A stretch of DNA of 42,420 nt from assembly GCA_028702395.1 (NCBI GenBank), contig JAQVOV010000002.1:27213-69632 (forward strand). Direction: 5' to 3'. The notes below the pieces were generated by a model. The model did not search any database. It was not told the DNA's origin and was given only the letters and a program-made list of their open reading frames with translations. Shown one piece after another: positions 3,915 through 40,757 of this stretch (position 1 is the first letter of the stretch; the number at the start of each line of letters is the position of its first letter). The position numbers were made by a program, and so were the translations under genes. This DNA comes from Candidatus Omnitrophota bacterium. GTDB lineage: Bacteria > Omnitrophota > Gorgyraeia > JABMRN01.

Positions 3915-4136
3915 TTTAGTATCCGTGTCTGTGTCGGTGTCGGTATTGTTTAATGATGGTTAGATCTGGTATTAACATAAAGTAAAACACCTGTGAATTC
4001 GCAATCATTGTCATTTACTTTTGTCATACCGGTTTTGCAATATATAACGTCAGACAAATACCGGTATCGAAAGTTATTATGCAATAATATCTTTAAATCA
4101 ATTTCTGCAGACACAGAAACTGACACTGACACTAAT
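3915..4136. repeat. composite intergenic hairpin element (GTGTCN-word arms, TATCTTTAAATCAATT core)
   Basis: Arm GTATCCGTGTCTGTGTCGGTGTCGGTATTG (3919-3948) faces arm CAGACACAGAAACTGACACTGACACTAATC (4108-4137). Motif ATATCTTTAAATCAATTT at 4087-4104 lies next to the right arm. Confidence 0.75.
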
Positions 4137-5798
4137 CTACATCTTCTTCGGCAACGACACTCCGAGAAGTTTGAGTCCGTTCGCAAGACATATTTTCACA
4201 CAATCAATCAAAAACAACCTTGCTTTTAACAATTCATTGTCATCTGTTATAACCTTATATTTTCCATAAAAGTTATGGAATTTTGATGCAAGTTCGTTTA
4301 AATACGAAATAACAAAAAAAGGTTCCAGTTTTTCGGCACTGGATCTAACAGTTTTAGGAAAAACTCCTATCGTCTTTGCAATAGCTATCTCTTCTTCTTC
4401 TTTCAACAAAGAAAGATCTGCTTTTGACAAATCAATAGCACCTGCCTTTTCATGAATGGACCATATTCTTGCATGTGCATATTGAATATAATAAACAGGA
4501 TTATCTGCGGATTGTTCTTTTGCTTTATCAAGATCAAAATCCAAATGTGTATCAAGATTTCTCATAAGAAAACAAAATTTCGTGACATCCTCACCTACTT
4601 CATCCATAACTTCTTTAAGAGAAATGAATTCTCCTTTTCTCGTAGACATGGAAAGTTCCTGTCCGTTTTTATATATCGTAGCAAGCTGAACTATCAGTAC
4701 TTTAATAGCATCATGATCATGGCCTAAAGCTTGAGCTGCAGCTGTTATCCTTGGAATGTATCCATGATGATCAGGTCCCCATATGTTTATAAGTTTATCA
4801 AACCCTCTTTCATATTTGTTCTTGTGATAAGCTATATCAGGCGCAAAATAAGTGAACTGCCCGTCACTTTTTACAACTACCCTATCTTTTTCATCATTAA
4901 AATCCGTGGATTTAAACCACAAAGCCCCATCCTGCTGATAAATATAGCCCTTTTCTTTAAGCAAAGATAGAACTTTGTCAATATCGGATTTTGTAATGTT
5001 TTTCTGGCTGAACCATGAATCAAAATCCACTTTAAATTGTTTCAGATCCTCTTTTATTATATTCAAAAGAAAATCAGCACCATATTTCCTGAAAAAATCT
5101 CTACTGCTTTGAGGATCCTTTACAAATTTATCGTTATATTCATCTTTTATTCTTAAAGCAATACCTTTAATATACTCTCCCTGATATCCGTCTTCGGGAA
5201 AAACACCATTTTTACCAAAAGCAGCTAAATAATGATAAAGTATAGAATCACCTAAGACATTTATCTGCCTGCCTTCATCATTTATGTAGAATTCCTTTGT
5301 TACATTATTTCCCATGAATTTAAGTATGTTGGCTAGAGCATCTCCAACAGCAGCCTGTCTGCCATGTGCAACAGTCAAAGGCCCGGTTGGATTGGCACTG
5401 ACAAATTCTATCTGTATATTATGGTGGTCTTTGTTTTTTGAACTGCCAAAAGATCCCCCTTCTTTTTCTACTGTCTTTAACACTTCATATGCATATTCTT
5501 TTGATAAAATAAAATTAATGAACCCAGGGTTAACAACATTTACGCTCTCGATAAGACCTGGTATCTTTTTATCCAATAATTCAATAATATCCGTTTTCAG
5601 GGTTTCTGCGATCTGGACAGGATTTTTTTTCAATATTTTTGTCAATTGAAGTGCTATGCTGGAAGAAAGGTCTCCATGGGCAGGATCTCTTGGTGCACCT
5701 ACTATTATATCCGGACAACTTTGATCCCCCATTATTTTCTTAACAGCTTTTTTTATGCCTTGTTCTAATATGATCTCTGATATCTGGGAAAAATCCAT
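4137..5798 (-). CDS. argS: arginine--tRNA ligase
   Basis: 553-aa ORF with the class I motif region SANPTGPLTVAHGR and ArgRS-like N-terminal and anticodon-binding regions. Confidence 0.95.
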   Translation of the reverse strand: MDFSQISEIILEQGIKKAVKKIMGDQSCPDIIVGAPRDPAHGDLSSSIALQLTKILKKNPVQIAETLKTDIIELLDKKIPGLIESVNVVNPGFINFILSKEYAYEVLKTVEKEGGSFGSSKNKDHHNIQIEFVSANPTGPLTVAHGRQAAVGDALANILKFMGNNVTKEFYINDEGRQINVLGDSILYHYLAAFGKNGVFPEDGYQGEYIKGIALRIKDEYNDKFVKDPQSSRDFFRKYGADFLLNIIKEDLKQFKVDFDSWFSQKNITKSDIDKVLSLLKEKGYIYQQDGALWFKSTDFNDEKDRVVVKSDGQFTYFAPDIAYHKNKYERGFDKLINIWGPDHHGYIPRITAAAQALGHDHDAIKVLIVQLATIYKNGQELSMSTRKGEFISLKEVMDEVGEDVTKFCFLMRNLDTHLDFDLDKAKEQSADNPVYYIQYAHARIWSIHEKAGAIDLSKADLSLLKEEEEIAIAKTIGVFPKTVRSSAEKLEPFFVISYLNELASKFHNFYGKYKVITDDNELLKARLFLIDCVKICLANGLKLLGVSLPKKM

Positions 5799-6212: not shown

Positions 6213-6327
6213 ATAGTGACTATTAACTAGAAATTAGTGACTGGAAAAGTCTACATAACGTTATCTTTAAATCAATTTATTCTAATCACTAGTCACTTGT
6301 CACTAATCACTAACCCCTATTAATCCC
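6213..6327. repeat. composite intergenic hairpin element (TAGTGAC-word arms, TATCTTTAAATCAATT core)
   Basis: Arms at 6214-6244 (TAGTGAC TATTAAC TAGAAAT TAGTGAC TGG) and 6282-6313 (CTAATCACTAGTCACTTGTCACTAATCACTAA). Core TTATCTTTAAATCAATTTATT at 6261-6281. Terminal CCCCTATTAATCCC at 6314-6327. Confidence 0.75.
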
Positions 6328-6331
6328 TACT

Positions 6332-6361
6332 AAAAAACATGAGTAGCGGATACACCGCTAC
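6332..6361 (-). terminator. rho-independent terminator candidate after the small basic-protein gene
   Basis: Minus strand reads GTAGCGG-TGTAT-CCGCTAC followed by TCATGTTTTTT. Confidence 0.55.
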
Positions 6362-6461: not shown

Positions 6462-6629
6462 TTATTTCAACTCTGCTGCTTTAGCTTTAGAAACAACTCT
6501 CCAGCATTCATGTGTACCTGTTGGAGACTTTGCAACTGCAAAAAAACGACCTTTTTTATCCTCAATCCTGTATTCTGATGTTTTGAATTTTGCCTTTGAT
6601 TTTACATCATAAAATTCCATTGCTTCCAT
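6462..6629 (-). CDS. small basic protein, 55 aa (MEAMEFYDVKSKAKFKTSEYRIEDKKGRFFAVAKSPTGTHECWRVVSKAKAAELK)
   Basis: Hand-translated and below the ORF-track length cutoff. GGAGG lies 7 nt upstream of the ATG, a terminator follows, and a promoter-like TTGCCA-18-TACACT lies about 140 nt upstream. The K-G-R...P-x-G-T pattern recalls DUF5679-type small proteins, but the four Cys positions are replaced. That family match is from memory and tentative. Confidence 0.45.
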   Translation of the reverse strand: MEAMEFYDVKSKAKFKTSEYRIEDKKGRFFAVAKSPTGTHECWRVVSKAKAAELK

Positions 6630-7016
6630 TCGATAACCTCCTTTTTTCGTATTACATGCTTCGTATCTTGAGCTATGAGTTTTTTAAGATCATAGGATCT
6701 CTCAGAGCACGCAGTTGGTAACACGCAACTGATCCTTTAATATTAATATTTTATGTAGTGTATCATAGAATTTCTTTTTTGGCAAGAAAAGCTTATTTTT
6801 TATTTGAAAATGATAAATATTGGTTTTAAGACCCCTTTTTTCCTTTAGTGTTAATTAGTACCAATTGTATAAACCTATATAAATGTATTTCAAAAATCTA
6901 TTAAGTGTTATTTGTCTGCAGATCTATCCTAAGAATGTTGGTAAACCAATAATATTCAGCTTTCCACAAAAGACTCATTACTCACAGACACATAACACAC
7001 AACAAAGATCCTTTTA

Positions 7017-8143: not shown

Positions 8144-8366
8144 TTTATCTCCTTTATAGCATCTGCAAGGTAAAAGTAAAAAGGTAAAAGTAAAAAACCT
8201 GTTTTCATTGTGGAGTCTTTTGTTTTTTTTGTAGGGGCGTATTGCAATACGCCCCTACAACGCTCTATTTGAACGTTCCATTAGCTACACGTAATGCGTA
8301 GTTCAATCCAGGACGTTCCACCCTTTTTACTTTTGCCTTTTTCCTTTTTACTTATCTTCCTATTAA
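8144..8366 (-). repeat. composite intercistronic hairpin element (GGTAAAA/GTAAAAA-word arms)
   Basis: Arms at 8167-8197 and 8324-8360. CATTGTGGAG box at 8198-8219. GC hairpin GTAGGGGCGTATTGCAATACGCCCCTAC at 8231-8258. Boxes GAACGTTCCAT (8271-8281) and AGGACGTTCCAC (8310-8321) flank an inner block at 8282-8305. Confidence 0.8.
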
Positions 8367-9173: not shown

Positions 9174-9309
9174 TGTTACTCCTTTATAGCGATTTTAGCT
9201 GTCAGCTATCAGCGTTCAGCTATCAGCAAAGGATCTTTCTAGAATCATTTTTTAGATCCCCTCTTTTAGGACGTTCCACAAGCTGACAGCTGAAAGCTAA
9301 TGGCTGATG
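9174..9309 (-). repeat. intercistronic hairpin element (AGCTNTC-word arms)
   Basis: Arm TAGCTGTCAGCTATCAGCGTTCAGCTATCAGC (9196-9227) faces arm AAGCTGACAGCTGAAAGCTAATGGCTGATG (9280-9309). Box AGGACGTTCCAC at 9268-9279. Confidence 0.8.
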
Positions 9310-13610: not shown

Positions 13611-13763
13611 GATTCTCCTAAAAAATATACTTTGTTATTAGTTATTTGTTATTAGTGTGAGTGGTGGATCGTCCTAAATACAGTTTTCAAACAAACCCTA
13701 TGAAGAGCCTTCTTTCACACACACTAATAACACACACTAATAACTAACTCCAATTAACTCGCT
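13611..13763 (+). repeat. intercistronic hairpin element (TTGTTAT/TAGTGTG-word arms), opposite orientation to the others
   Basis: Arms at 13631-13663 and 13726-13750. Here the box GTGGATCGTCCTAAATA (13664-13680) reads on the plus strand. Confidence 0.75.
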
Positions 13764-14843: not shown

Positions 14844-15085
14844 ATTATTTCCTTTATATGACTTTTAAGTAAAAAGTAAAAAGTTAAAAGTTAAAAGTTA
14901 AAAATCTGTTATCATTGTAGAATCTTATGTTAGGCTCATTTTTAGTGTCTGTGTCTGTTTCTGTGTCTGGAAAGGAACATCCTAAATATAGTTTTTTTAC
15001 ATCTTTTAGAAGGATCCACCACTGACACAAACACAAACACTGACACTAATTACTTTTACCTTTTTCCTTTTTCCTTAATCTTCTA
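14844..15085 (-). repeat. nested composite element: GTGTCT-word element inside a GTAAAAA-word element
   Basis: Outer arms at 14865-14904 and 15050-15076. CATTGTAGAATCTT box at 14905-14926. Inner arms at 14942-14970 and 15020-15049 enclose GGAACATCCTAAATATAG...AGAAGGATCCAC. Confidence 0.8.
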
Positions 15086-16444: not shown

Positions 16445-16648
16445 CTCTAATGGGATTCAAGGTAAAAGTAAAAAATCTGTTACCATTGTGGAATCTTCTT
16501 GGATTTCTTTGTAGGGGCGTATTGCAATACGCCCCTACAAAAACCTCTTTCAGAACTTTCCACATTTTTTGTTCTTAACTAAATTTAGGACGCTCCATCC
16601 TTTTACCTTTTACCTTTTTACTTTTTCCTTATAAGTCTTATTACTCGC
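16445..16648 (-). repeat. composite intercistronic hairpin element (GGTAAAA-word arms)
   Basis: Arms at 16459-16475 and 16599-16628. Box TCTGTTACCATTGTGGAATCTT at 16476-16497. A GC hairpin at 16511-16538 is identical to 8231-8258. Further boxes at 16551-16565 and 16587-16598. Confidence 0.8.
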
Positions 16649-17740: not shown

Positions 17741-17869
17741 TAGACTCCTTTATAGCAACTTTAGCTTTCAGCTTTCAGCAAAAAGATCGGTTTAACAAAA
17801 AGTTTCTTTAAAAAACTCATTTAGGATCTTCCTCTGGCTGAGAGCTGACAGCTGAAGGCTGAAGGCTGC
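17741..17869 (-). repeat. intercistronic hairpin element (AGCTTTC/GCTGAAG-word arms) overlapping the murF 3' end
   Basis: Arm at 17760-17779 faces arm at 17835-17869. Box AGGATCTTCCTC at 17823-17834. The right arm and the box lie inside the murF reading frame. Confidence 0.75.
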
Positions 17870-19223
17870 TTTTCATTAACTCTATCTTTCGCACAACCTC
17901 TTCCATCTTCGCTTTACGTGAACCTTTGACAAGTATTATATCATTAGGTTCAAGTATATTAAACAATTGTTTATACAGACTTTCTTTTTCATTAAAAACA
18001 AAAACATGTGCTTTTTCCATACCATTTTTTATTGCACCATTTGCTATATACGCGGCTTCTTTTCCGACAGTGATAAGTTTGTCTATTTTTGCAGATGCTA
18101 TGTTCTTCCCGATCTGAATATGCAGTTTTTTGGACTGTTCTCCGAGTTCTAACATATCTGAAACAATTATGATTTTTTTATTTTTCCCTATTTTATCCAA
18201 GGATTCTATTGCCTTTTGCATTGATAAAGGATTAGAATTGTAAGTATCATCAATAACTGTATATCTGCCTTTTCTACTTACAAAGAATCTGTTCTTGTTT
18301 TCTGCTCTATATTTTTTCAAACTCAGCGCCATTTTTTTTAAAGGTATATCAAAGATCTGTCCAACAGTTACTGCACATAATACATTATAAAGGTTATGTT
18401 TCCCAATTAAGCTCACTGTAAATTTAACACTACCAACATAAAACGAAAGAGCCCCTTTTTTATCATAATATTTGTCATTATGACTTTTCTTGTCTATGTT
18501 AAACATGACTTTTTTACAGTGTACCTTTATTTTGTTCAAAAGCTGATCATCTCCGTTCAACACAGCTATTCCATTATCAGGCAAAGAATTGATAAGTTCT
18601 TTTTTTTCTTTTAAAACATTAAGGCGTGTCTTAAATCCTTTTAAATGTGCATCTCCAACATTTGTTATCACTCCTACGTCAGGCTGTACTATCTGTGACA
18701 ATCTAGAAATTTCACCGGGTGAATTTGTCCCAAGCTCAACAACACCTACTTCATGTGTTTTCTTTAACTGAAATAATGTTAAAGGAACACCGATAAAATT
18801 ATTCTTTGTTCCTTCTGTTTTAAGAACCTTATAACTTTTAGATAAAAGAAAAGCTATTATTTCTTTTGTGCTTGTCTTTCCTGCAGAACCTGTTATTGCG
18901 ACTATTGGGATATCCATTTTACATCTGTAAAAACAAGCAATATCACCCATATTTTTGATCGTATCTTTTACGAAAAAAACGGGAATATGTTTTTCTACTG
19001 CAACGGCATCTTTTGTATTTTTTGAAGCAATAATGCAAACTGCTCCTTTTTTATATGCTTCGAGTACAAAATCATTACCGTTGAATCTTTCCCCTTTGAT
19101 GGCAATGTAAAGATCGCCCTTTTTCACCTTGCGGGAATCAATGCAAACACCTTTGATCTTTGTTCGATCATCTTTATATTTACGGTTCTTTAGAACCTGG
19201 GCTATTTCTGAAACAGTGAACAT
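17817..19223 (-). CDS. murF: UDP-N-acetylmuramoyl-tripeptide--D-alanyl-D-alanine ligase
   Basis: 468 aa with the Mur ligase P-loop GSAGKTSTKE. The last ~17 aa (SSLQPSAVSSQPEEDPK) are encoded by the repeat element. Confidence 0.9.
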   Translation of the reverse strand: MFTVSEIAQVLKNRKYKDDRTKIKGVCIDSRKVKKGDLYIAIKGERFNGNDFVLEAYKKGAVCIIASKNTKDAVAVEKHIPVFFVKDTIKNMGDIACFYRCKMDIPIVAITGSAGKTSTKEIIAFLLSKSYKVLKTEGTKNNFIGVPLTLFQLKKTHEVGVVELGTNSPGEISRLSQIVQPDVGVITNVGDAHLKGFKTRLNVLKEKKELINSLPDNGIAVLNGDDQLLNKIKVHCKKVMFNIDKKSHNDKYYDKKGALSFYVGSVKFTVSLIGKHNLYNVLCAVTVGQIFDIPLKKMALSLKKYRAENKNRFFVSRKGRYTVIDDTYNSNPLSMQKAIESLDKIGKNKKIIIVSDMLELGEQSKKLHIQIGKNIASAKIDKLITVGKEAAYIANGAIKNGMEKAHVFVFNEKESLYKQLFNILEPNDIILVKGSRKAKMEEVVRKIELMKSSLQPSAVSSQPEEDPK

Positions 19224-19436
19224 TGGACTCCTTTATTTAGTGACTAGTAACTAGAAACTAGTTACTAGAAATAATTGCTTTAAAGCTATTTCGTTTATGA
19301 AGTTTCTTACATAATCTCTCTAAAATTGTTGCTAATTAATCAATTAAATTTTTATTCTCTATCTTAGGATATCTTAAGATCAATTTATCCTAGTCACTAG
19401 TCACGAATCCCTATCACCTGATACCTAGTCACGAAC
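19224..19436. repeat. composite intercistronic hairpin element (TAGTNAC-word arms, ATCTTAAGATCAATTTATC core)
   Basis: Arms at 19237-19268 and 19390-19436. Core motif at 19369-19389. The right arm overlaps the last codons of murE. Confidence 0.75.
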
Positions 19437-23132: not shown

Positions 23133-23198
23133 AGGACCATCCACAAGCTGAGCCCTGCCTGCCGGCAGGCAGGGCTAATAGCTGAAAGCTGATGGCTA
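23133..23198 (-). repeat. hairpin-element arm (AGCTGAA words) carrying an inserted GC-rich palindrome
   Basis: Box AGGACCATCCAC at 23133-23144. The arm AAGCTGAG...CTAATAGCTGAAAGCTGATGGCTA is interrupted by CCCTGCCTGCCGGCAGGCAGGG (23153-23174). The partner arm near 23070-23095 is degenerate. Confidence 0.6.
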
Positions 23199-26320: not shown

Positions 26321-27403
26321 TTAAAACCATTTTTTGCGTTTGAAATATGTGACCATTCCAACTACTATTGATATCATAATGATCCATGCAAAAACATAAC
26401 CATATCGCCAATTAAGTTCCGGCATGTTCAAAGGTGATATCGCAGTATTGAAATTCATACCATAGATACCTGCAACAAAAGTAAGAGGAATAAATATAGT
26501 TGCGATTATGGTCAGCACTTTCATTACTTCATTCATTCTATTACTTACACTGGAAAGATAAATATCAAGTGTGCCTGAGACTGTATCCCTAAATGATTCT
26601 ATTGTATCTATTATCTGTATAGTATGATTATATATATCCCTTAAATAAACTGCGGTTGTTTTCTTTATCAATTTTGATTCGGTTTTCTCCAATCCATTGA
26701 TAACTTCTCTCAAAGGCCATATGGTTTTGCGTAAAAATATTATATCCCTTTTCAGATCCTGTATTGTTTGCACGCTTTTTGGAGTAGGTTCATTTATCAG
26801 ATCATCTTCCATACTTTCAATATTTTCCCCTACCTTCTCCAGAATGACAAAATAATTATCAACAAGAGCATCTATAATTGAATAAACAAGATAATCTGCG
26901 CCCATCTTACGTATCTTACCCTTTGCCATTTTTATGCGATTTCTCAAAATATCAAAAACATCTCCTTCTGTTTCCTGAAAAGATATGACAAAATTTTGCC
27001 CTACTATTAAACTGACCTGCTCACATTTAATGTCATTTTCTTTTTCATCAAAATATAGCATCTTTAAAATAAGGAACATATAGTTTTCAGCATCCTCGAA
27101 TTTCGGACGTTGACTGGTATTAACTATATCAGCCATGAAAAGATGATGAATATTAAAATGATTTCCTATCTTTTCTATCAATGCTGTATCATGGATCCCG
27201 TCGATATTTATCCAGGATACGGTTTTTGTATCCCTTAAAAGAAAACAGTCCTCTATATTATCTATATATTTTTGAGTGAATTTATCCTGATCATAATCAA
27301 TAATACTTATCCTTACATGCTCTGTTTTCTTTTCCCCGACATATACCAATGCCCCTGGTTCAAGACCTATAGTATTGGAAATTTTTTTTATGAATCTTGC
27401 CAT
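26321..27403 (-). CDS. corA: magnesium/cobalt transporter CorA
   Basis: 360 aa with two C-terminal TM helices and the YGMNF signature. Confidence 0.9.
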   Translation of the reverse strand: MARFIKKISNTIGLEPGALVYVGEKKTEHVRISIIDYDQDKFTQKYIDNIEDCFLLRDTKTVSWINIDGIHDTALIEKIGNHFNIHHLFMADIVNTSQRPKFEDAENYMFLILKMLYFDEKENDIKCEQVSLIVGQNFVISFQETEGDVFDILRNRIKMAKGKIRKMGADYLVYSIIDALVDNYFVILEKVGENIESMEDDLINEPTPKSVQTIQDLKRDIIFLRKTIWPLREVINGLEKTESKLIKKTTAVYLRDIYNHTIQIIDTIESFRDTVSGTLDIYLSSVSNRMNEVMKVLTIIATIFIPLTFVAGIYGMNFNTAISPLNMPELNWRYGYVFAWIIMISIVVGMVTYFKRKKWF

Positions 27404-27431
27404 ATAGCTGCCTCCAACATTTGCTGTTTTA

Positions 27432-27503
27432 GTAGGGACAATTCATGCCCTATACCAGAGTTTTGCTATGCAAAACACGGTATAGGGTTTAAATTGCCCC
27501 TAC
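27432..27503 (-). repeat. 72-nt compound hairpin, copy 1 (inverted relative to copy 2)
   Basis: This copy matches the reverse complement of 29503-29574 at 71 of 72 positions. A GTAGGG(A/G)C...GCCCCTAC outer stem encloses a second palindrome. Confidence 0.9.
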
Positions 27504-27540
27504 TACTTTATAATATTGCAATTAAAATGAAAATTGTTAT

Positions 27541-27978
27541 TTACACGCCGATATCTTCATTCCATAAAGAAGGATTTTGTTCGATAAAATCCTTCATCAT
27601 TTCAATGCATTGTTTATCCTGTAAAACCTCTATTTTAACACCTCTGTTTTTAAGAAGTTCTTCTTCGCCCATAAAATTCTTGTTTTCCCCAATAATGACC
27701 TTAGGTATACCATATAACAAAACAGCACCTGTACACATTATACAAGGAGAAAGTGTCGTATACAATTCACATTTTTTATATATTGCTGATGTTTTTCTTC
27801 CTGCATTTTCCAATGCATCCATTTCACCGTGTAGAATAACACTGCCGTTTTGTATTCGTTTATTATGACCTTTGCCGATTATTTTACCCTCATATACCAA
27901 TACAGCACCTATTGGTAACCCTCCTTCTTCAAGGCCTTTTTGAGCTTCTGCTATAGCTTCTTTCATATACTCGTTCAT
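27541..27978 (-). CDS. cytosine deaminase, FCY1/CDA-fold type
   Basis: 145 aa with HGEMDALENAG and PCIMCTGA zinc motifs. It is collinear with my recollection of yeast Fcy1 (GHN.R.Q.GS..LHGE...LEN.GR, YTTLSPC.MCTGA, WNEDIG tail). Confidence 0.8.
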   Translation of the reverse strand: MNEYMKEAIAEAQKGLEEGGLPIGAVLVYEGKIIGKGHNKRIQNGSVILHGEMDALENAGRKTSAIYKKCELYTTLSPCIMCTGAVLLYGIPKVIIGENKNFMGEEELLKNRGVKIEVLQDKQCIEMMKDFIEQNPSLWNEDIGV

Positions 27979-27996
27979 TTTTTCTCCTTATACTAT

Positions 27997-28094
27997 AAAC
28001 CGTTATGCGTTGTGCGTTATTGCGTTATGCGTAAATCGTAAACCGTGAACCGTATATCTTTAAATCAATTAATACTATTCACTATTCACTAAAG
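27997..28094. repeat. hybrid element: CGTNNNN-word arm Y, TATCTTTAAATCAATT core, ATTCACT-word arm
   Basis: Arm Y at 27997-28054, core at 28055-28070, arm AATACTATTCACTATTCACTAAAG at 28071-28094. The complement of arm Y lies 1.55 kb away at 29605-29690. Confidence 0.8.
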
Positions 28095-28099
28095 CCCTA

Positions 28100-29314
28100 T
28101 TAACCTAAAACCTCTGATAATAGGTCCAGATAATCTGATATCAGTCTGGTAGTAAGAAAATGTTTTCTGACATGTTCTTTTGCTTTTACACCCATTGATT
28201 CACTTAATTTAGGATCTTTAAAAAGCTTTACTACTTTATCTGCACATGCTTTAAGATCATAAGGATCAACTAAAAATCCTGTTTGTCCATCAATGATCTG
28301 ATGAGGAATACCTCCTACATTACCTGCAACTACCGGTTTACCTTTCCATAAAGCTTCTGCTACGACCAACCCAAATCCCTCTTTAATTGATTTTTGGATA
28401 ATGACAGTAGAAAATCGTTGAATAGCATTCACAAGAAGCTCATTATTACCTACAACGAATAGAACATCTCCTTTATCAATATAACTTTTTGCTTTCGCAT
28501 AAACTCTTTCAAATATTTTCATACCTTCAGGGTCATCTGTTGCAAGGTTATAGCAATAAAGAAGCCTGCAATCCACTTTTTCTTTTACAAGTTTAAAAAC
28601 CTCAAGTACTCCTTCAGGGTCTTTCCAAGGATCCATTCTTGACACTTGTGTTAATAAAGGTTTATCTGTTGGGATATTATTATCTTTTATATACTTCATA
28701 ATCTCTTCTTCAGAGAGCTCTCTGTTCTTTAAAGACAAAGGATCTATTGCAGGTTGAATTACCTTTTGAATGACCGGAAGATCAGGTTTTCTGTATTTTT
28801 CGCTTGATATGATAATAGCATCATAACGGATCATGAATTTTTTTAAATACTCCCATAATTCTTTATTAGGATCAGTAATATCTATATGGCATCTCCATAT
28901 CCATGGTTGTTGTTTTCTGTAATAAGATATTAAAGGAAGCGGCTGTGGATCATGAACTATCAAACAATCATATTTATTAAGCTGCGAAAAACTTGCATAT
29001 TCCTGATTTATATCAGTATAAATAGATTTTACTTGTGGGGAAAGATCAATAGGCCCGCTTTGAAGTGCATTGTGAAAACTTTTTGTTACATCAAAAAAAG
29101 CAGGGCTTCCGTGAATTGTACGCCATTCTGCGTCTAAACCAACCTCGTTCATAAGAGGAACCATTCTTCCCAGTATTTCAGCAACACCTCCGCCTAAAAA
29201 TGTTGCGTTTACATTCGCTATCTTCTTACGATATAATTTATTGGCTTTCTTGAATATCTTTGATATCGTTTCAACACCTACAATATCAATATAATCTGAT
29301 ATACTTCTCATCAT
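28100..29314 (-). CDS. treT: trehalose glycosyltransferring synthase TreT-like GT4 glycosyltransferase
   Basis: 404 aa, collinear with archaeal TreT as recalled (GGGVAEIL, FF.VTK.FHNALQ, VHDPQP, PW.WRCHID, VSR.DPWK, EGFGL.V.EA.WKGKPV). Confidence 0.8.
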   Translation of the reverse strand: MMRSISDYIDIVGVETISKIFKKANKLYRKKIANVNATFLGGGVAEILGRMVPLMNEVGLDAEWRTIHGSPAFFDVTKSFHNALQSGPIDLSPQVKSIYTDINQEYASFSQLNKYDCLIVHDPQPLPLISYYRKQQPWIWRCHIDITDPNKELWEYLKKFMIRYDAIIISSEKYRKPDLPVIQKVIQPAIDPLSLKNRELSEEEIMKYIKDNNIPTDKPLLTQVSRMDPWKDPEGVLEVFKLVKEKVDCRLLYCYNLATDDPEGMKIFERVYAKAKSYIDKGDVLFVVGNNELLVNAIQRFSTVIIQKSIKEGFGLVVAEALWKGKPVVAGNVGGIPHQIIDGQTGFLVDPYDLKACADKVVKLFKDPKLSESMGVKAKEHVRKHFLTTRLISDYLDLLSEVLG

Positions 29315-29502
29315 GTTTTACTCCTTTTTTTTAGGAAAAATTATTCTGAAAAGAACCATATATAAAAGTTAATATATTATAACACAATATCATCTCTTGT
29401 GTTCATTTTTTTAAAACGGCTTGATAATGGCAGATTGGTTTAACTAGTTGGACTAATCTGGTCTTAAAGATGAAAGTGTTGGAAATTCTCAACGATGTTT
29501 TT

Positions 29503-29574
29503 GTAGGGGCAATTTAAACCCTATACCGTGTTTTGCATAGCAAAACTCTGGTATAGGGCATGAATTGCCCCTAC
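29503..29574 (+). repeat. 72-nt compound hairpin, copy 2
   Basis: GTAGGGGCAATT + 44-nt palindrome (TAAACCCTATACCGTGTTTTGCATAGCAAAACTCTGGTATAGGG) + CATGAATTGCCCCTAC. Confidence 0.9.
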
Positions 29575-29604
29575 TGAAAAACATGCAATAGCACAATAAC
29601 AAAT

Positions 29605-29690
29605 TACGGTTCACGGTTCACGATTTACGACATACGCATAACGCACAACGCTTTACGACTTACGGCTTGCGACTCACGACTAACGGTTTA
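29605..29690. repeat. heptamer-word arm Y' (about 12 units, TACGGTT CACGGTT CACGATT TACGACA ...)
   Basis: The first 25 nt match the reverse complement of 28030-28054 with 1 mismatch. A further shared 14-mer, ATAACGCACAACGC, follows a one-unit indel. Confidence 0.85.
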
Positions 29691-29756
29691 CCTTAATACC
29701 TAAACTATGTTTTTTAAAAAAGTGTTAGATTCAAAACAAGATCCCATGACTTAAAA

Positions 29757-30470
29757 CTAAAATAACATTTTTATACCTATAAAAAACAAAGCTATCAGTA
29801 CTATCTTACGAAAAGTCTGTTGACTTATTTTCTGTAAAAGGATCTTTCCTGTTTTAACTCCTAAATATGCGCTGATGAACATAAAAGGAATAAGCATGTA
29901 ATACGAAGTATCCTGCACGATCTTAACAAATAGATAAGCAGGTATTCTGGTAAGATCTATAACAAAAGCTATCATAGCAGAAGTGCCGATATATATTTCT
30001 TTAGGCATGTCAAATGCTACCAAAAATGTTGATCTTATTGCACCACCTAAACCTATTAACCCTGCTAAAAACCCAGAAAGACCTCCTCCAATAAAAGCAG
30101 ATGATCTTGTTTTTTTTATGACAAATCTAGGTTTTACCAAAGAATACAGAGAAAAAACTATCAGAAATACAGCCAATATGCTCTTTACCACATCTACTGG
30201 AACAATAGAAATAAGTGCAGCACCTATCAAAGCAAAGCAAATGCTTGGAATACCAAAAAGCAAAAAGATATTAAGATCTATTTTATTCCAAAAAAGCTTG
30301 ATCTTAAAGGTGTTACTGAATAGATGAAAACAAGCTACAAGAAAAATTGCCGTTTTCAGATCCATGAACATAGTGGCAACAGGCACAAGAAGAGTTGAAC
30401 TCCCAAACCCGGCTAAAGTTGCTGCAATTGCAGCAAAAAAAGAGGCTATTAAAAATACAATGTTTTCCAT
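29757..30470 (-). CDS. TauE/SafE family sulfite/anion exporter
   Basis: 237-aa polytopic membrane protein with Gly-rich TM helices typical of DUF81/TauE. Confidence 0.75.
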   Translation of the reverse strand: MENIVFLIASFFAAIAATLAGFGSSTLLVPVATMFMDLKTAIFLVACFHLFSNTFKIKLFWNKIDLNIFLLFGIPSICFALIGAALISIVPVDVVKSILAVFLIVFSLYSLVKPRFVIKKTRSSAFIGGGLSGFLAGLIGLGGAIRSTFLVAFDMPKEIYIGTSAMIAFVIDLTRIPAYLFVKIVQDTSYYMLIPFMFISAYLGVKTGKILLQKISQQTFRKIVLIALFFIGIKMLF

Positions 30471-35457: not shown

Positions 35458-35723
35458 CATGACTCATGACTCATGACTCATGACCCATTACCCATGACCC
35501 ATTACCCATTACCCATGACTCATGACCCATTACCCATGACCCATTACCCATGACCCATTACCCATGACTCATGACCCATTACCCATGACTCATGACCCAT
35601 TACCCATGACTCATGACCCATTACCCATGACCCATGACCCATGACTCATGACCCATTACCCATGACTCATGACCCATGACCCATTACCCATTACCCATGA
35701 CTCATGACCCATGACCCATTCCC
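35458..35723. repeat. 38-unit perfect-register heptamer tandem array (CATGACT / CATGACC / CATTACC)
   Basis: The 266 nt parse without indels into 38 units of three variants. The last unit, CATTCCC, is degenerate. Confidence 0.95.
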
Positions 35724-35787
35724 CCTCTATTATTATATACGATCAAAAAGCCATTCTGTCCCAAATTATTTTAAAAAAGAAGTGAAA

Positions 35788-35891
35788 TGCGGAGAAAAAG
35801 CCGCCTAATCTCCGCACATTACATAAAATACCTTGTATTTACTTGACAATGCGGAGAAAAGCAGGTATAATCTCCGCATAAAGTGCGGAGA
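35788..35891 (+). promoter_or_regulatory. Fic promoter with two 8-13-8 palindromic operators and a half-site
   Basis: TGCGGAGA-N13-TCTCCGCA occurs at 35788-35816 and 35850-35878. The promoter is TTGACA (35843-35848), 17 nt, TATAAT (35866-35871). A half-site TGCGGAGA at 35884-35891 lies over the SD. Confidence 0.75.
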
Positions 35892-37129: not shown

Positions 37130-37218
37130 AGTAGGGGCAATTCATGAATTGCCCCTACAAAACCTCATCCAGGACGTTCCACTGGCTGACAGCTGAAGGC
37201 TAACAGCTAAAGGCTAAC
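37130..37218 (-). repeat. one-armed element: simple GC hairpin, AGGACGTTCCAC box, GCTGAAGG-word arm
   Basis: GTAGGGGCAATTCATGAATTGCCCCTAC at 37130-37157, box at 37170-37181, and arm TGGCTGACAGCTGAAGGCTAACAGCTAAAGGCTAACC at 37182-37218. No clear partner arm. Confidence 0.75.
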
Positions 37219-38463: not shown

Positions 38464-38787
38464 TTATTTTTTCTTTGGTGATAGATCTATACTAAGTTTA
38501 GCATCTAAAGCTAAAGCGATCTTACTTAATGTAGATACAGAAATCTCAGTATTACTAGCATCCTCTAGTCTAGAAATAGTCTGTTGAGTTGTATTGACCT
38601 TCTTGGCTAATTGAGCTTGAGTCAAATTTCTACGTTTTCGAAGTTTCACGATTTTCATGGCAAGTTCTAAGCGTTCGATTTGCTCTATATATGCTTTCCG
38701 AAACTCTTTACTTTTCTTAAACTCACTATCTATATGAGAGCTTATAGTTTCTGGTATATTCACCTTTATTTTTTTTGGCTTTTTCAT
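38464..38787 (-). CDS. XRE-family HTH antitoxin (HigA-like)
   Basis: 107 aa with the HTH LTQAQLAKKVNTTQQTISRLE, directly downstream of the toxin gene. Confidence 0.8.
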   Translation of the reverse strand: MKKPKKIKVNIPETISSHIDSEFKKSKEFRKAYIEQIERLELAMKIVKLRKRRNLTQAQLAKKVNTTQQTISRLEDASNTEISVSTLSKIALALDAKLSIDLSPKKK

Positions 38788-38798
38788 TTCTTTCCCCT

Positions 38799-39167
38799 TT
38801 ATTTTAATTTTATTTTTCCTTCATTATATTGAATTTGAAAATCTATCATTCTCTTTTTTGCTTTCAATTTATCATTTTCAGATATCTTTGATGTTTTCTT
38901 TAAAATACCATGTAATAACACAATATAATCTTTAAACATATATCCATAAAAAACTCGAACATTGTTAGATGAAAACTGAACTCTGAGCTCATATAGATCA
39001 TCTCCTAAATACTCAACTATTGGTCGTTTCAATTCCTTCCAATTGTCACATAAAAAATTAGTACTTGCTAATACTTTAGCCCTTGTATGCACATCTAGTT
39101 TATTTATAAATTCTTTAACAGGCTTTTTCCCACGTTTATCCTGATAATAAATTGCTGTCTTTGCCAC
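38799..39167 (-). CDS. RelE/ParE-superfamily toxin, Gp49/HigB-like
   Basis: 122 aa with a GTG start 4 nt after GGAGG. The pattern KPVKEFINKL...LYELRV...RVFY is typical of Gp49-like toxins. Toxin-first order is as in HigBA. Confidence 0.75.
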   Translation of the reverse strand: MAKTAIYYQDKRGKKPVKEFINKLDVHTRAKVLASTNFLCDNWKELKRPIVEYLGDDLYELRVQFSSNNVRVFYGYMFKDYIVLLHGILKKTSKISENDKLKAKKRMIDFQIQYNEGKIKLK

Positions 39168-39176
39168 ATCCCCTCC

Positions 39177-39228
39177 AATACATTATTATTGATGTATTAA
39201 ATATACACTATTATTGGTGTATAATCAA
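39177..39228 (-). promoter_or_regulatory. higBA-like promoter with two 7-8-7 palindromic operators
   Basis: AATACAT-TATTATTG-ATGTATT at 39177-39198 and TATACAC-TATTATTG-GTGTATA at 39202-39223. The minus-strand promoter is TTGATT (39223-39228), 17 nt, TATATT (39200-39205). Confidence 0.7.
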
Positions 39229-39366
39229 GCGAATTTTAAAAATTTTTCCATATAACATTTTATCTTTCAAAGTCGTTAGAATTATTCTGCCTACACCTAT
39301 TTGCAACCCATTTATGTTCAGTATGTTGTAAACATATAGCTTTAAAGCAAAACTTCTGAATTCAGA

Positions 39367-39413
39367 TCTGCCTGCTTGTTAAAGCAGGCAGGGTCATCCC
39401 CGCCTTAAGGCGG
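39367..39413. repeat. two adjacent GC-rich hairpins (CTGCCTGCT/AGCAGGCAG and CCCGCC/GGCGGG)
   Basis: Seen directly in the sequence. The first is related to the CCCTGCCTGC...GCAGGCAGGG palindrome at 23153-23174. No U-tract follows. Confidence 0.7.
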
Positions 39414-39495
39414 GCCCATGCCATAATTACGTTTTTTGGTCTTTAGCAAAAAAAAATTACCTAATTACTGAGCTAGTACATCTGACCCTAAGTTT

Positions 39496-40692
39496 TTACT
39501 TTTTTGCTATTTCAATTAAATAATTCAAAGTTCCTTCAGCTTTAACTTGTAATGCTTGCAATTGCTTCTTATCAAACGAATGTCGCACCTTGTGTGTCCC
39601 ACCTTGGAAAAGATCAATGAACGCTAAACTAGAGGTTACATCTGTAGAAACAAAGTGTTCAAGTTTACCTGTCTTTATATTACGACATATATATTCTATT
39701 CTTGCTTTTCGTGTCGGTTTGTTATTCTGGTAATATTGTGGCTCTGAACTCCACTTTTCCACTTTTTTTGTTGGTGCTAAAGAATGTAATAAATGTGTGA
39801 AAAGCTCTCTTATCGAAACGCAAAAATGTCTAACTCTATCTGGATTATTTGAAGCTAAAGCATTACAAGCCCCTCTCCACATATTAATAAAATCTGAATC
39901 TATCATTTGAAGGTTTTTTTCAAGCTTATTTGTAATATATTCTTCAACAACTTTCTTTTTTTCTTTTTTAAAACTATCATCCAAATCAGTTCTGGTAGAT
40001 ATGTTTTTATATAAATCAACTTCATTAAAATATTCTATTGAGGTTAACTCCGTTAGTGGCATTCCTAACTCAACCATTGTATTAGGGGAAGTTCTCCAAG
40101 TATTACACATATCATTAAAATTGTGTGTCATACTTTCTATACCTGTAAATAAGCTATGTTTGTCTTCATGTTCAAAAGGAAGAAACGTGCCTACGTTACT
40201 GGGATAAATCAAACTAAGATCTTGTTCTGCAAATATACTGTTTTCTGAAATTTTAGTTAAACTTGACTGATAAGACAATTCGGATAACTTTAATGTTACA
40301 TCTTCTCCTAAATTGAGATTTTCAAAACCTGTCAATGAAGCATTCTTATAGGGATCATATATAAAAGGATTGTTTTCGTGATTATACTCAAGAGCTACAG
40401 AACTTATTATATCTTGTGTCATAAGCCCTGCCATATTAAGATTAATATCTCTTCCCATTCTAAGCAACTCAGTACTTTCTTTATACAAATTTAGTTCTGG
40501 AAGAGAGGCTACCATTTTGGTAGTATCTTGAATTCCCCAAGATACTAAATTGTCCACTTTCAAATATAAATTATTATCTTTAAAAAACTCCGAATTGTTT
40601 TCTAAACCAGTGAAAAACGGTTCTGTTCTTATCTTGTAACATTCCATACAATTAATTGCGTTTGAATACCCCTCATATATTTCTTTATCCAT
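39496..40692 (-). CDS. hypothetical protein with C-terminal R-x4-H (HEPN-like) motif
   Basis: The start is set at MDKEIYEGY, preceded by AAAGGAGGGAAG. The ORF-track start 40755 would run through a terminator-like hairpin. The motif RELFTH lies in a helical C-terminal region. The N-terminal ~280 aa are unrecognised. Confidence 0.6.
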   Translation of the reverse strand: MDKEIYEGYSNAINCMECYKIRTEPFFTGLENNSEFFKDNNLYLKVDNLVSWGIQDTTKMVASLPELNLYKESTELLRMGRDINLNMAGLMTQDIISSVALEYNHENNPFIYDPYKNASLTGFENLNLGEDVTLKLSELSYQSSLTKISENSIFAEQDLSLIYPSNVGTFLPFEHEDKHSLFTGIESMTHNFNDMCNTWRTSPNTMVELGMPLTELTSIEYFNEVDLYKNISTRTDLDDSFKKEKKKVVEEYITNKLEKNLQMIDSDFINMWRGACNALASNNPDRVRHFCVSIRELFTHLLHSLAPTKKVEKWSSEPQYYQNNKPTRKARIEYICRNIKTGKLEHFVSTDVTSSLAFIDLFQGGTHKVRHSFDKKQLQALQVKAEGTLNYLIEIAKK

Positions 40693-40707
40693 CTTCCCTC
40701 CTTTATC

Positions 40708-40732
40708 AAAAAAGGGACGCTGAAGGCGCCCC
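40708..40732 (-). terminator. terminator-like hairpin between the TPR gene and the HEPN-like gene
   Basis: Minus strand reads GGGGCG-CCTTCAG-CGTCCC followed by TTTTTT, immediately upstream of the SD. Confidence 0.5.
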
Positions 40733-40757
40733 TTTCCCCGTAATTCTTCCCCCAAAT

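Follow-up and report, generated by a model that had tools for sequence, protein, structure and literature searches.

The trehalose synthase gene (treT) of a Candidatus Omnitrophota bacterium (assembly GCA_028702395.1, contig JAQVOV010000002.1) is bracketed by two complementary arrays of degenerate heptamers, here termed arms Y and Y'. The stretch analyzed (positions 27,213 to 69,632 of the contig, 42,420 nucleotides, henceforth the window) has a GC content of 0.34 and carries nearly all of its genes on the minus strand. The genes of the locus are co-oriented and include, in mRNA order: (i) tauE, encoding a TauE/SafE-family membrane protein (29757-30470, minus strand; Pfam TauE), (ii) treT itself, encoding a 403-residue GT4 trehalose synthase (28100-29311, minus strand; Pfam TreT_GT1 at 3e-55 and Glycos_transf_1) and (iii) a tadA-like deaminase gene (27541-27978, minus strand; Pfam dCMP_cyt_deam_1). 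The start of treT, placed at 29314 in an earlier note made from the sequence alone, is corrected to 29311 by a 403-residue database copy. Arm Y' (29605-29690, minus strand) consists of 12 units, comes after tauE at 66 nt from its stop codon and forms the 5' arm in mRNA sense. Arm Y (27996-28054, minus strand) consists of eight degenerate units (ACGC/ACGG words in mRNA sense), forms the 3' arm and serves tadA, with 6 nt between its end and the tadA Shine-Dalgarno (SD) sequence (AAGGAG, 27984-27989). Both arms are recognized as period-7 arrays by Tandem Repeats Finder.

Y and Y' are reverse complements, as the earlier note had claimed. An inverted-repeat search recovers two matches between them, one of 33 nt with 91% complementarity (28021-28053 / 29613-29645, 1559 nt apart) and one of 25 nt with 84% (27996-28020 / 29638-29662). 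Gapped blastn of the window against its own reverse strand gives a single alignment (27996-28054 / 29605-29662; 59 nt, 83%, one gap, E = 1.5e-8), which is the top non-local inverted pair of the window, a 77-nt hairpin repeat excepted. The match of 24 of 25 nt at the inner ends and the shared 14-mer noticed before are both present, the latter being the longest common word of Y and Y', and the outer 10-mers match as well (TAAACCGTTA / TAACGGTTTA). The order of the units is mirrored, with AACCGTT as the outer unit and ATCGT plus two AACCGT as inner units. With unit-sized bulges permitted, the duplex has 61 pairs (25 GC, 33 AU and 3 GU) and an energy of -86 kcal/mol (all energies are for isolated RNA at 37 °C), with a single 29-nt internal loop that corresponds to the four surplus units of Y'. 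All three transition mismatches between the arms are G.U in mRNA sense. Y/Y' is the longest stem of the window despite being split by a loop of 1550 nt that contains treT.

Each arm has the other as its sole good partner in the window. Outside the two arms, no partner of Y does better than -34.5 kcal/mol, against a mean of -12.6 (sd 5.1) over 2118 window tiles of 60 nt. Counting Watson-Crick pairs only, the local score of Y/Y' is 41, whereas every other pair among 34 arms scores 26 or less. Y-type words (GCGTTRTGCGTTAT, up to three mismatches) are confined to Y and Y' in the window, plus one GTGT variant at 6992. These values bear on the possibility that two unrelated, unpaired arms are alike by chance or through mere likeness of their word family. 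The genome is rich in heptamer arms, and long-range complementary matches are common between elements of abundant families; yet the E-value of 1.5e-8, the agreement at both arm ends and the absence of the CGT-word family from the rest of the window make a chance resemblance very improbable. The suggestion that the arms are closer than word-family likeness predicts is likewise borne out, with a score of 41 against a background of 13-29 between elements of the family to which they belong (see below). Neither arm has a local partner. As proposed earlier, the spacers on both sides of treT are hybrids with mismatched adjacent arms; they fold no better than shuffled sequences (z = -0.3 for 27979-28099 and z = +1.3 for the other).

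Heptamer arrays occur in nearly every spacer between co-oriented genes of the window (25 arrays of period 7, 14 or 21 in 42 kb), and hairpins with stems built of degenerate tandem heptamers fill nearly every spacer of the dcw operon (dcw cluster and neighbors, 1-24956). In mRNA sense, a stop codon is usually followed by the 5' arm and an inner core, then by the loop, and beyond it by the mirrored core, the 3' arm, GCTATAAAGGAG and the start codon. Five spacers folded outside the treT region form long hairpins; murF|mraY has z = -2.6 and the other four have z = -4.2 to -6.0. The inner core GTGGAACGTCCTRAA (core A, up to three mismatches) is present in 14 copies versus 1.1 expected from shuffles, and 11 of these are in mRNA sense beside 5' arms (e.g., the 15-nt sites on the inner side of 5' arms at 9265-9279, 8307-8321, 37168-37182 and 1929-1943). 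The sequence GCTATAAAGGAG between the 3' arm and the start codon is found in four exact copies versus 0.2 expected from shuffles. Both GTGGAACGTCCTRAA and GCTATAAAGGAG may be sites for a protein or an RNase. A search of viral contigs with the core-A motif gave 91 single matches, judged to be at or below chance for a 15-nt pattern in a collection that large. Elements of a second type carry TATCTTTAAATCAATT as their core. The loops of the heptamer hairpins sometimes hold a hairpin resembling repetitive extragenic palindromic (REP) sequences, with ends GTAGGGGC...GCCCCTAC, or a nested element; elsewhere in the window such loop insertions are represented by REP hairpins at 8229-8260 and 16508-16541 and by a nested element at 14942-15049.

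The words of the arms fall into at least seven families in 42 kb, namely AAGTAAA, CAGCTNN, GTGTCTG, AGTGACT, TCGAAAA, GTTATTA and the CGT-word Y family. In families with several copies, arms taken from different elements are complementary to the same degree as arms within one element. The window accordingly has a second long-range pair (14856-14897 / 16600-16641) around murD, which arises because the arms of one multi-copy family are mutually complementary and both murD-flanking spacers hold complete elements of the AAGTAAA family.

The sequence compared amounts to 42 kb from this genome and 19 kb from two close relatives, L099 (ENA ERZ28669879) and L100 (JGI 3300014204). Judged by MurD, the three form a narrow clade in which L100 is 87% and L099 75% identical to the window, the next match being at 59%. 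L099 is syntenic with the window from ftsI to argS, has a GC content of 0.32 and equals the window in array density; other Omnitrophota loci have 0-2 arrays per 20 kb. The orthologous dcw spacers of L099 (1-16894) and L100 also carry heptamer-arm hairpins, mostly of other word families, and L099 has hybrids with non-complementary arms in its murE|murF and ftsQ|ftsA spacers. Because orthologous spacers differ in word family and such hybrids exist, the heptamer elements appear from sequence comparison to turn over fast and to exchange halves while their positions persist.

The Y family is defined from L100 460-594, L099 12519-12647 and L099 4151-4278. Its compact hairpins lie in the mraY|murD spacer of L100 (loop of ~22 nt) and in the ddl|ftsQ and murF|mraY spacers of L099 (loops of ~20-28 nt and ~50-55 nt, respectively). 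The 3' end of the compact hairpins reads CG[CT]AT[AT]ACGG and is followed within 5-8 nt by TATAA(A)GG(AG) and then the start codon, so that they end just before the ribosome-binding site (RBS). Y ends in the same position and shares this 3' end (in the window, CGCATAACGG TTTATAGTATAAGGAG AAAAA ATG). With the interior removed, Y' plus Y aligns collinearly with the compact hairpins; the direct similarity of Y to the 3' arms of the family is 20-25 and that of Y' to the 5' arms is 13-27. Complementarity scores are 13-29 between different Y-family elements, 10-22 within the compact elements and 41 for Y/Y'. The unit words AACCGTT, ATCGT and AACCGT that are mirrored in Y and Y' are absent from the family members in the relatives. 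In keeping with the family, Y' and Y are complementary arms of GCGT/ACGC heptamer units, and their outer ends sit between the tauE stop codon and the RBS of the co-oriented tadA. The loop is the exception: the family has ~20-55 nt where Y'/Y has 1550 nt, an anomaly to be explained.

The contents of this loop provide further detail. In mRNA order from Y' to Y, they include a 25-nt spacer, a REP-like hairpin, a core-A-like stretch with a 13-nt AAAGATG-word remnant, a palindrome (P), a promoter-like site, treT and a half-element of the second (B) type. The core TATCTTTAAATCAATT, the ATTCACT-word arm, treT and the hairpin listed in the earlier note are all present, the hairpin being ~80 nt in length (29498-29579) rather than 72. 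The promoter-like site (29376-29405, minus strand) reads TGAACA, 18 nt and TG-n-TATAAT, with 10 of 12 consensus matches plus an extended -10 TG, and the gene strand of the window has only six such intergenic sites, this one included; treT is, thus, a self-contained transcription unit by its promoter-like site. Palindrome P, of ACTAGTT words (29431-29460), is immediately upstream of that site. A longer relative of P (1833-1917) is upstream of fhs, which shares the module of palindrome plus promoter and has a perfect promoter (TTGACA-17-TATAAT); the ACTAGTT-word palindromes of fhs and treT may act as an operator common to both genes or as an insulator hairpin upstream of them.

Half-elements of other element families lie on both sides of treT and have no partners of their own. 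The one on the upstream side is an A-type remnant (29462-29492, minus strand), in which a short arm of AAAGATG words (29464-29476) and, after it, a degenerate stretch resembling core A (GTGTTGGAAATTCTC) can be read from the sequence. The flank beside it (29473-29510) and the REP flank of the mraY|murD element (16531-16568) agree at 82% over 38 nt. The segment 29464-29476 is, as reported before, the exact reverse complement of 2003-2015; the recombination between distant copies at which this was taken to hint loses its footing, since the window holds 89 distinct exact inverted matches of at least 13 nt and such matches are individually at chance level. The likeness of the ACTAGTT block and its surroundings (29430-29476) to the fhs/mfd element (1847-2015) is also real and is better read as shared family membership, with palindrome P plus promoter and an AAAGAT-word arm in common. 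On the downstream side, the B-type half-element (28055-28103, minus strand) consists of the core TATCTTTAAATCAATT (28055-28070), an ATTCACT-word arm (28074-28091; AGTGAAT words in mRNA sense) and, overlapping the treT stop codon, the conserved flank CCCTATTAA. This half abuts Y with no spacer, is not complementary to it and aligns with the corresponding halves at 6258-6336, 19366-19426 and 4090-4140.

With slightly better than even confidence, Y' and Y are read as the 5' and 3' arms of one Y-family intercistronic hairpin repeat whose loop now holds a 1.55-kb treT-bearing segment. Hairpins of this lineage place the 5' arm after the upstream stop codon and end the 3' arm a few bases before the next RBS, and a single Y-family hairpin of GCGT/ACGC words would originally have occupied the spacer between tauE and tadA. 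The 1.55-kb segment, comprising treT with its own promoter and upstream palindrome, would then have been placed in the loop of that hairpin. Its upstream boundary would be the left half of an A-type element together with the REP-like hairpin, and its downstream boundary the right half of a B-type element. As all three break points would then be in hairpin loops, breakage or recombination at extruded or folded hairpins, i.e., an intragenomic translocation, is proposed in place of transposition. Several observations fit a single hairpin that received an insertion, in that loops are known acceptors, halves are exchanged in the relatives and treT is self-contained. Thus, of the two alternatives offered in the earlier note, insertion of a gene-sized segment into a pre-existing element is the better supported, by the compact Y hairpins of two relatives, the collinear alignment of Y' plus Y with them and the half-elements that bound the interior.

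The treT gene is native by composition. Its GC content (0.338), third-position GC content (0.218) and codon-usage distance (0.160) are typical of the window genes, and TreT is ~80% identical to many proteins from sources labelled Candidatus Omnitrophota or Omnitrophica. A foreign origin of the gene, for which a codon-usage check had been recommended, is ruled out by this typical composition and by the phylum-typical protein, which argues for an intragenomic rearrangement and not an acquisition. An inversion was also considered as the origin of the arrangement and rejected: inversion between two hairpin loops would give partner arms as direct repeats and flipped genes, neither of which is seen. 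The independent Logan contig L094 (SRR22315503) matches 27475-29532 at 100% identity, has both ends inside copies of the 77-nt hairpin and is collinear with the window across Y, so that the proposed check for inversion variants gave no sign of inversion at Y in that assembly.

Several points weigh against an insertion into a single hairpin. No genome with the arrangement tauE-[Y'Y]-tadA and no donor-site scar was found, and the L099 and L100 stretches do not cover the locus. The inner junctions show no microhomology or duplication. In this genome, families with several copies have arms that are 88-90% complementary between different elements, a range comparable to the 83-91% of Y/Y', and the census of the Y family spans 42 kb of the genome, so copies elsewhere are possible. 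The hybrids of L099 arise without any gene insertion. In addition, 5' half-elements with no 3' partner are found in other promoter-bearing spacers of the window (after mfd and after ftsA); an unpaired Y' by itself, thus, needs no insertion.

These points lend some weight to a history in which treT never moved. Two hairpins of the same Y family would have flanked a resident treT, the upstream one losing its 3' arm and the downstream one its 5' arm to halves of other elements. Replacement of halves is frequent, as in the murE|murF and ftsQ|ftsA hybrids of L099, which formed without gene insertion; adjacent spacers can share a family, as the AAGTAAA elements on both sides of murD illustrate (14856-14897 / 16600-16641); and arms of the same family are homogenized within a genome. 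Such a history would, however, require three events, one duplication and two reciprocal half-losses that spared exactly the outer halves, and no further Y-family copy is found in the 42 kb. The mirrored order of units and the matching outer ends are simpler to explain as one element. Two hairpins around a resident gene are, on balance, regarded as an unlikely origin.

The long-range stem may alternatively be functional in its own right. In a read-through RNA of tauE-treT-tadA, paired Y' and Y could serve as a site for a double-strand-specific RNase, as an insulator or as a switch that blocks the tadA leader in read-through transcripts only, with their complementarity under selection. The predicted minimum-energy fold of a 1.8-kb model RNA has 57 Y'-Y pairs, and barring pairs that span more than 600 nt costs a computed 60.7 kcal/mol; such folding ignores kinetics and translation. 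The three G.U mismatches in mRNA sense, the position of the stem base ~6 nt from the tadA SD and the length of the stem, which is the longest of the window though split, point in the same direction. Against selection on the RNA, G.U and A.C mismatches number 22 and 13 over 19 hairpins, a difference that is not significant (p = 0.18) and gives no strand-specific RNA signal. The treT promoter lies inside the loop, hence many transcripts would lack Y', and neither the window nor L099 has another gene enclosed by arms without local partners. A selected RNA stem is, accordingly, seen as an outside candidate of about the same low probability as the resident-gene history. Under the insertion reading, the tauE read-through RNA could still close a 1.55-kb loop around the treT cistron with the base of the stem beside the tadA RBS, whereas transcripts from the treT promoter would contain Y only and have an unstructured tadA leader; the arms today are probably a relic at the DNA level.

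The second alternative of the earlier note, in which Y' and Y are the terminal inverted repeats (TIRs) of a non-autonomous transposon that carries treT and relies on a transposase encoded elsewhere, fares poorly. The arms are inverted around a complete gene with its promoter, as expected of TIRs, and SD-like direct repeats are read from the sequence just outside both, CCTTATAC outside Y (27986-27993) and its partner CCTTAATAC directly outside Y' (29691-29699), a pair that may represent either a target-type duplication or the conserved end of an element. The context of treT also varies among Omnitrophota: the gene has five different contexts in five other members of the phylum, among them those of the TreT homologs P0004, P0006 and P0017. 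None of those five loci has flanking inverted arms, however, and blastn finds no complementary flanks in them (E ≥ 0.05, compared to 2e-12 here). A transposon origin is further disfavored in that no transposase or integrase is among the genes of the 42-kb window, the Y'-treT-Y unit is single-copy in the window, other members of the Y hairpin family carry no cargo, the arm words vary by element unlike transposase-binding ends, and the gene is native in composition. The repeats outside Y and Y' look like the generic SD-like flanks that all elements have. Such sequences (TTAATAGGAG, ATTAAGG and TATAAGG) recur just outside 5' arms (e.g., 8354-8366, 13744-13763 and L099 12519-12532) and resemble the real SD region outside 3' arms; they could have arisen as a target-type duplication of the RBS region, or else mark a conserved end of the elements. 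The context of tauE is, moreover, as variable as that of treT (four different contexts in relatives, for the TauE homologs P0125, P0129, P0124 and P0121), which makes shifting synteny general. As both contexts vary, gene order is not conserved at the distances available. A treT-carrying transposon is, therefore, considered highly unlikely.

Searches for closer relatives of the locus were of limited yield. A scan of a genome collection with TreT recovered only two near relatives (80% and 78% identity), both in other contexts. A metagenome scan with TadA, a protein too conserved to single out relatives, recovered 80 loci of 61-74% identity, all from unrelated genomes and with no heptamer arms. 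Exact searches with the window proteins returned only short contigs of the same genome (L094 and L103) that terminate in repeats.

The hairpin in the treT loop belongs to a separate class of repeats and includes the strongest inverted repeat of the window. Copy b (29498-29579, ~80 nt, ends GTAGGGGC...GCCCCTAC) lies inside the loop and copy a (27427-27503) in the tadA|corA spacer; the inverted copies 27427-27503 and 29503-29579, overlooked in the earlier note, have ends of the form GTAGGG..CCCTAC, are 97% identical over 77 nt and lie 2.0 kb apart (E = 1.5e-26). The copies interleave with the arm pair in the order a, tadA, Y, treT, b and Y'. REP elements carry a 5' GTAG. A conserved GC-rich palindrome with 5' GTAG and many copies is seen at 8229-8260, 16508-16541, 27427-27503, 29498-29579 and 37131-37158, and is not seen in the Y arms; the GTAGGGGC...GCCCCTAC hairpins of the window look like true REPs. 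A 28-nt perfect palindrome, GTAGGGGCGTATTGCAATACGCCCCTAC, is present at 8229-8260 and 16508-16541, is identical in L099 (8103-8136; MurD 75% identical) and is identical again in five IMG/VR contigs (L196-L200) with a GC content of 49-58%. Its sameness across such different genomes suggests a protein-recognized or horizontally spreading REP; a literature search found no paper that mentions this palindrome. A GC-rich palindrome, GCCCTGCCTGCCGGCAGGCAGGGC (23151-23176), is inserted within a heptamer arm downstream of mraW, and a related CTGCCTGC...GCAGGCAGG hairpin is found at 39368-39395, the two representing a third kind of small hairpin repeat. An Rfam scan, at the gathering threshold and also at E ≤ 1, gave nothing relevant, the hairpin having a weak match to a miRNA model only.

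The heptamer-arm hairpins share features with several known systems. REP sequences, bacterial interspersed mosaic elements (BIMEs) and REPINs are short, abundant, hairpin-forming spacer repeats that are often found in operons, spread within a genome and are nested or mosaic (PMC3116915). Like these elements, which are associated with REP-associated tyrosine transposases (RAYTs), the Omnitrophota elements are abundant intergenic hairpins with nested or mosaic structure. By contrast, REP stems are conserved, whereas Y-type stems are degenerate tandem heptamers that differ per element, with the conserved inner core GTGGAACGTCCTRAA and the RBS-proximal end GCTATAAAGGAG standing in for conserved stems. 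No RAYT gene was seen in the window. Miniature inverted-repeat transposable elements (MITEs; e.g., Correia, ERIC, RUP and BOX) are similarly small, non-coding elements with inverted ends that are dispersed in intergenic regions, sometimes co-transcribed and able to affect mRNA processing. MITEs have conserved ends and a variable interior, the reverse of the Omnitrophota elements, for which neither a clear target-site duplication nor a parent transposon was found. The Y'/Y unit, moreover, is single-copy and 1.7 kb in length.

Intergenic arrays of 7-nt units are also known. The cyanobacterial short tandemly repeated repetitive (STRR) sequences are heptamer tandem repeats in spacers. The TAACTGA repeats of Beggiatoaceae are intergenic 7-nt arrays that often lie directly before start codons and are suspected of a post-transcriptional role (PMC4679880). 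Both use one or a few fixed heptamers, mostly in direct arrays, whereas many word families are present here as complementary pairs. None of the REP/BIME/REPIN, MITE, STRR and TAACTGA systems pairs variable heptamer stems with conserved inner cores and an RBS-proximal end. Literature searches found no account of heptamer repeats in Omnitrophota, nor of a hairpin system that unites these features.

Two further systems resemble the treT locus in architecture. The RNase III stems that flank 16S and 23S rRNA are complements separated by 1.5-3 kb; by pairing in the primary transcript, they enclose a whole functional RNA. Y' and Y are likewise complementary across ~1.55 kb, and their pairing is predicted to dominate in the 1.8-kb model RNA; they differ in that they would enclose a translated mRNA with an internal promoter. 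The attC cassettes of integrons resemble the locus as single genes delimited by imperfect, sequence-variable inverted-repeat hairpins, with attC recombination taking place inside the folded hairpin. Unlike integrons, the locus has no integrase and no cassette array, its neighbors being tauE, tadA, corA, a radical-SAM gene and the dcw cluster, and no core sites of the GTTRRRY type are evident in the arm sequences. The arms, furthermore, are inverted copies that flank the gene and not one attC after it.

The window as a whole carries the complete dcw cluster, in mRNA order mraZ, mraW, ftsI, murE, murF, mraY, murD, ftsW, murG, murC, murB, ddl, ftsQ and ftsA, with rsfS, argS, mfd and fhs downstream and the radical-SAM gene, tauE, treT, tadA and corA upstream. 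No tRNA gene is present in the window. Neither in the window nor in the L099 stretch is ftsZ downstream of ftsA; the long spacer after ftsA includes a 55-residue open reading frame (ORF) with its own promoter-like site (6462-6629, minus strand) that is kept in L099 (14797-14964) and has no match in a Pfam search. A HigB/Gp49-like toxin and a helix-turn-helix antitoxin are encoded beside a protein with a predicted pPIWI-associated nuclease domain (PF18165), a group (38464-40755) that may be a defense islet.

Other heptamer arrays of the window and of more distant genomes were observed in passing. An array of ~37 CATGACC/CATTACC heptamers (35458-35719) separates a 2-hydroxyacid dehydrogenase gene from a divergent Fic/DUF4172 gene and is adjoined by a perfect TTGACA-17-TATAAT promoter that is embedded in GCGGAGA/TCTCCGC inverted repeats (35787-35879). 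A heptamer arm of GGCTGAA words (17836-17868) falls within the last ~17 codons of the murF ORF (17817-19223); the arm would then be coding in part, unless the repeat has lengthened the reading frame. Lone heptamer-arm hairpins or arrays are found in more distant genomes of higher GC content (L095 6889-6966 of GCA_000402985.1, L197 3557-3679 and L001 11393-11694), one distant case being between sodB and the next gene of an Omnitrophica single-cell genome. As these isolated cases occur in distant genomes, the heptamer design appears to be older than the clade in which it is abundant.

The treT locus is, on the favored reading, a disrupted member of a probably undescribed variant of intergenic hairpin repeats. 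In a bolder and distinctly speculative view, the heptamer-arm hairpins would be undescribed mobile or self-renewing intercistronic elements with loops that act as break-and-join points, and Y'-treT-Y would be a live case in which the gene is moved as a unit, or excised or insulated in RNA by a stem like those of rRNA. If the insertion reading is true, the locus would be a clear natural example of a gene landing in the loop of an intergenic hairpin repeat, and the loops of hairpin repeats would act as break points in the rearrangement of operons. The background hairpin system outweighs this single locus, as it fills nearly every spacer of the essential dcw genes and turns over at MurD identities of 75-87%. 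It bears on the fragmentation of assemblies, in which independent contigs end in repeats, on the spread of hairpin repeats and on the influence of repeats on operon expression in a phylum that is poorly known.

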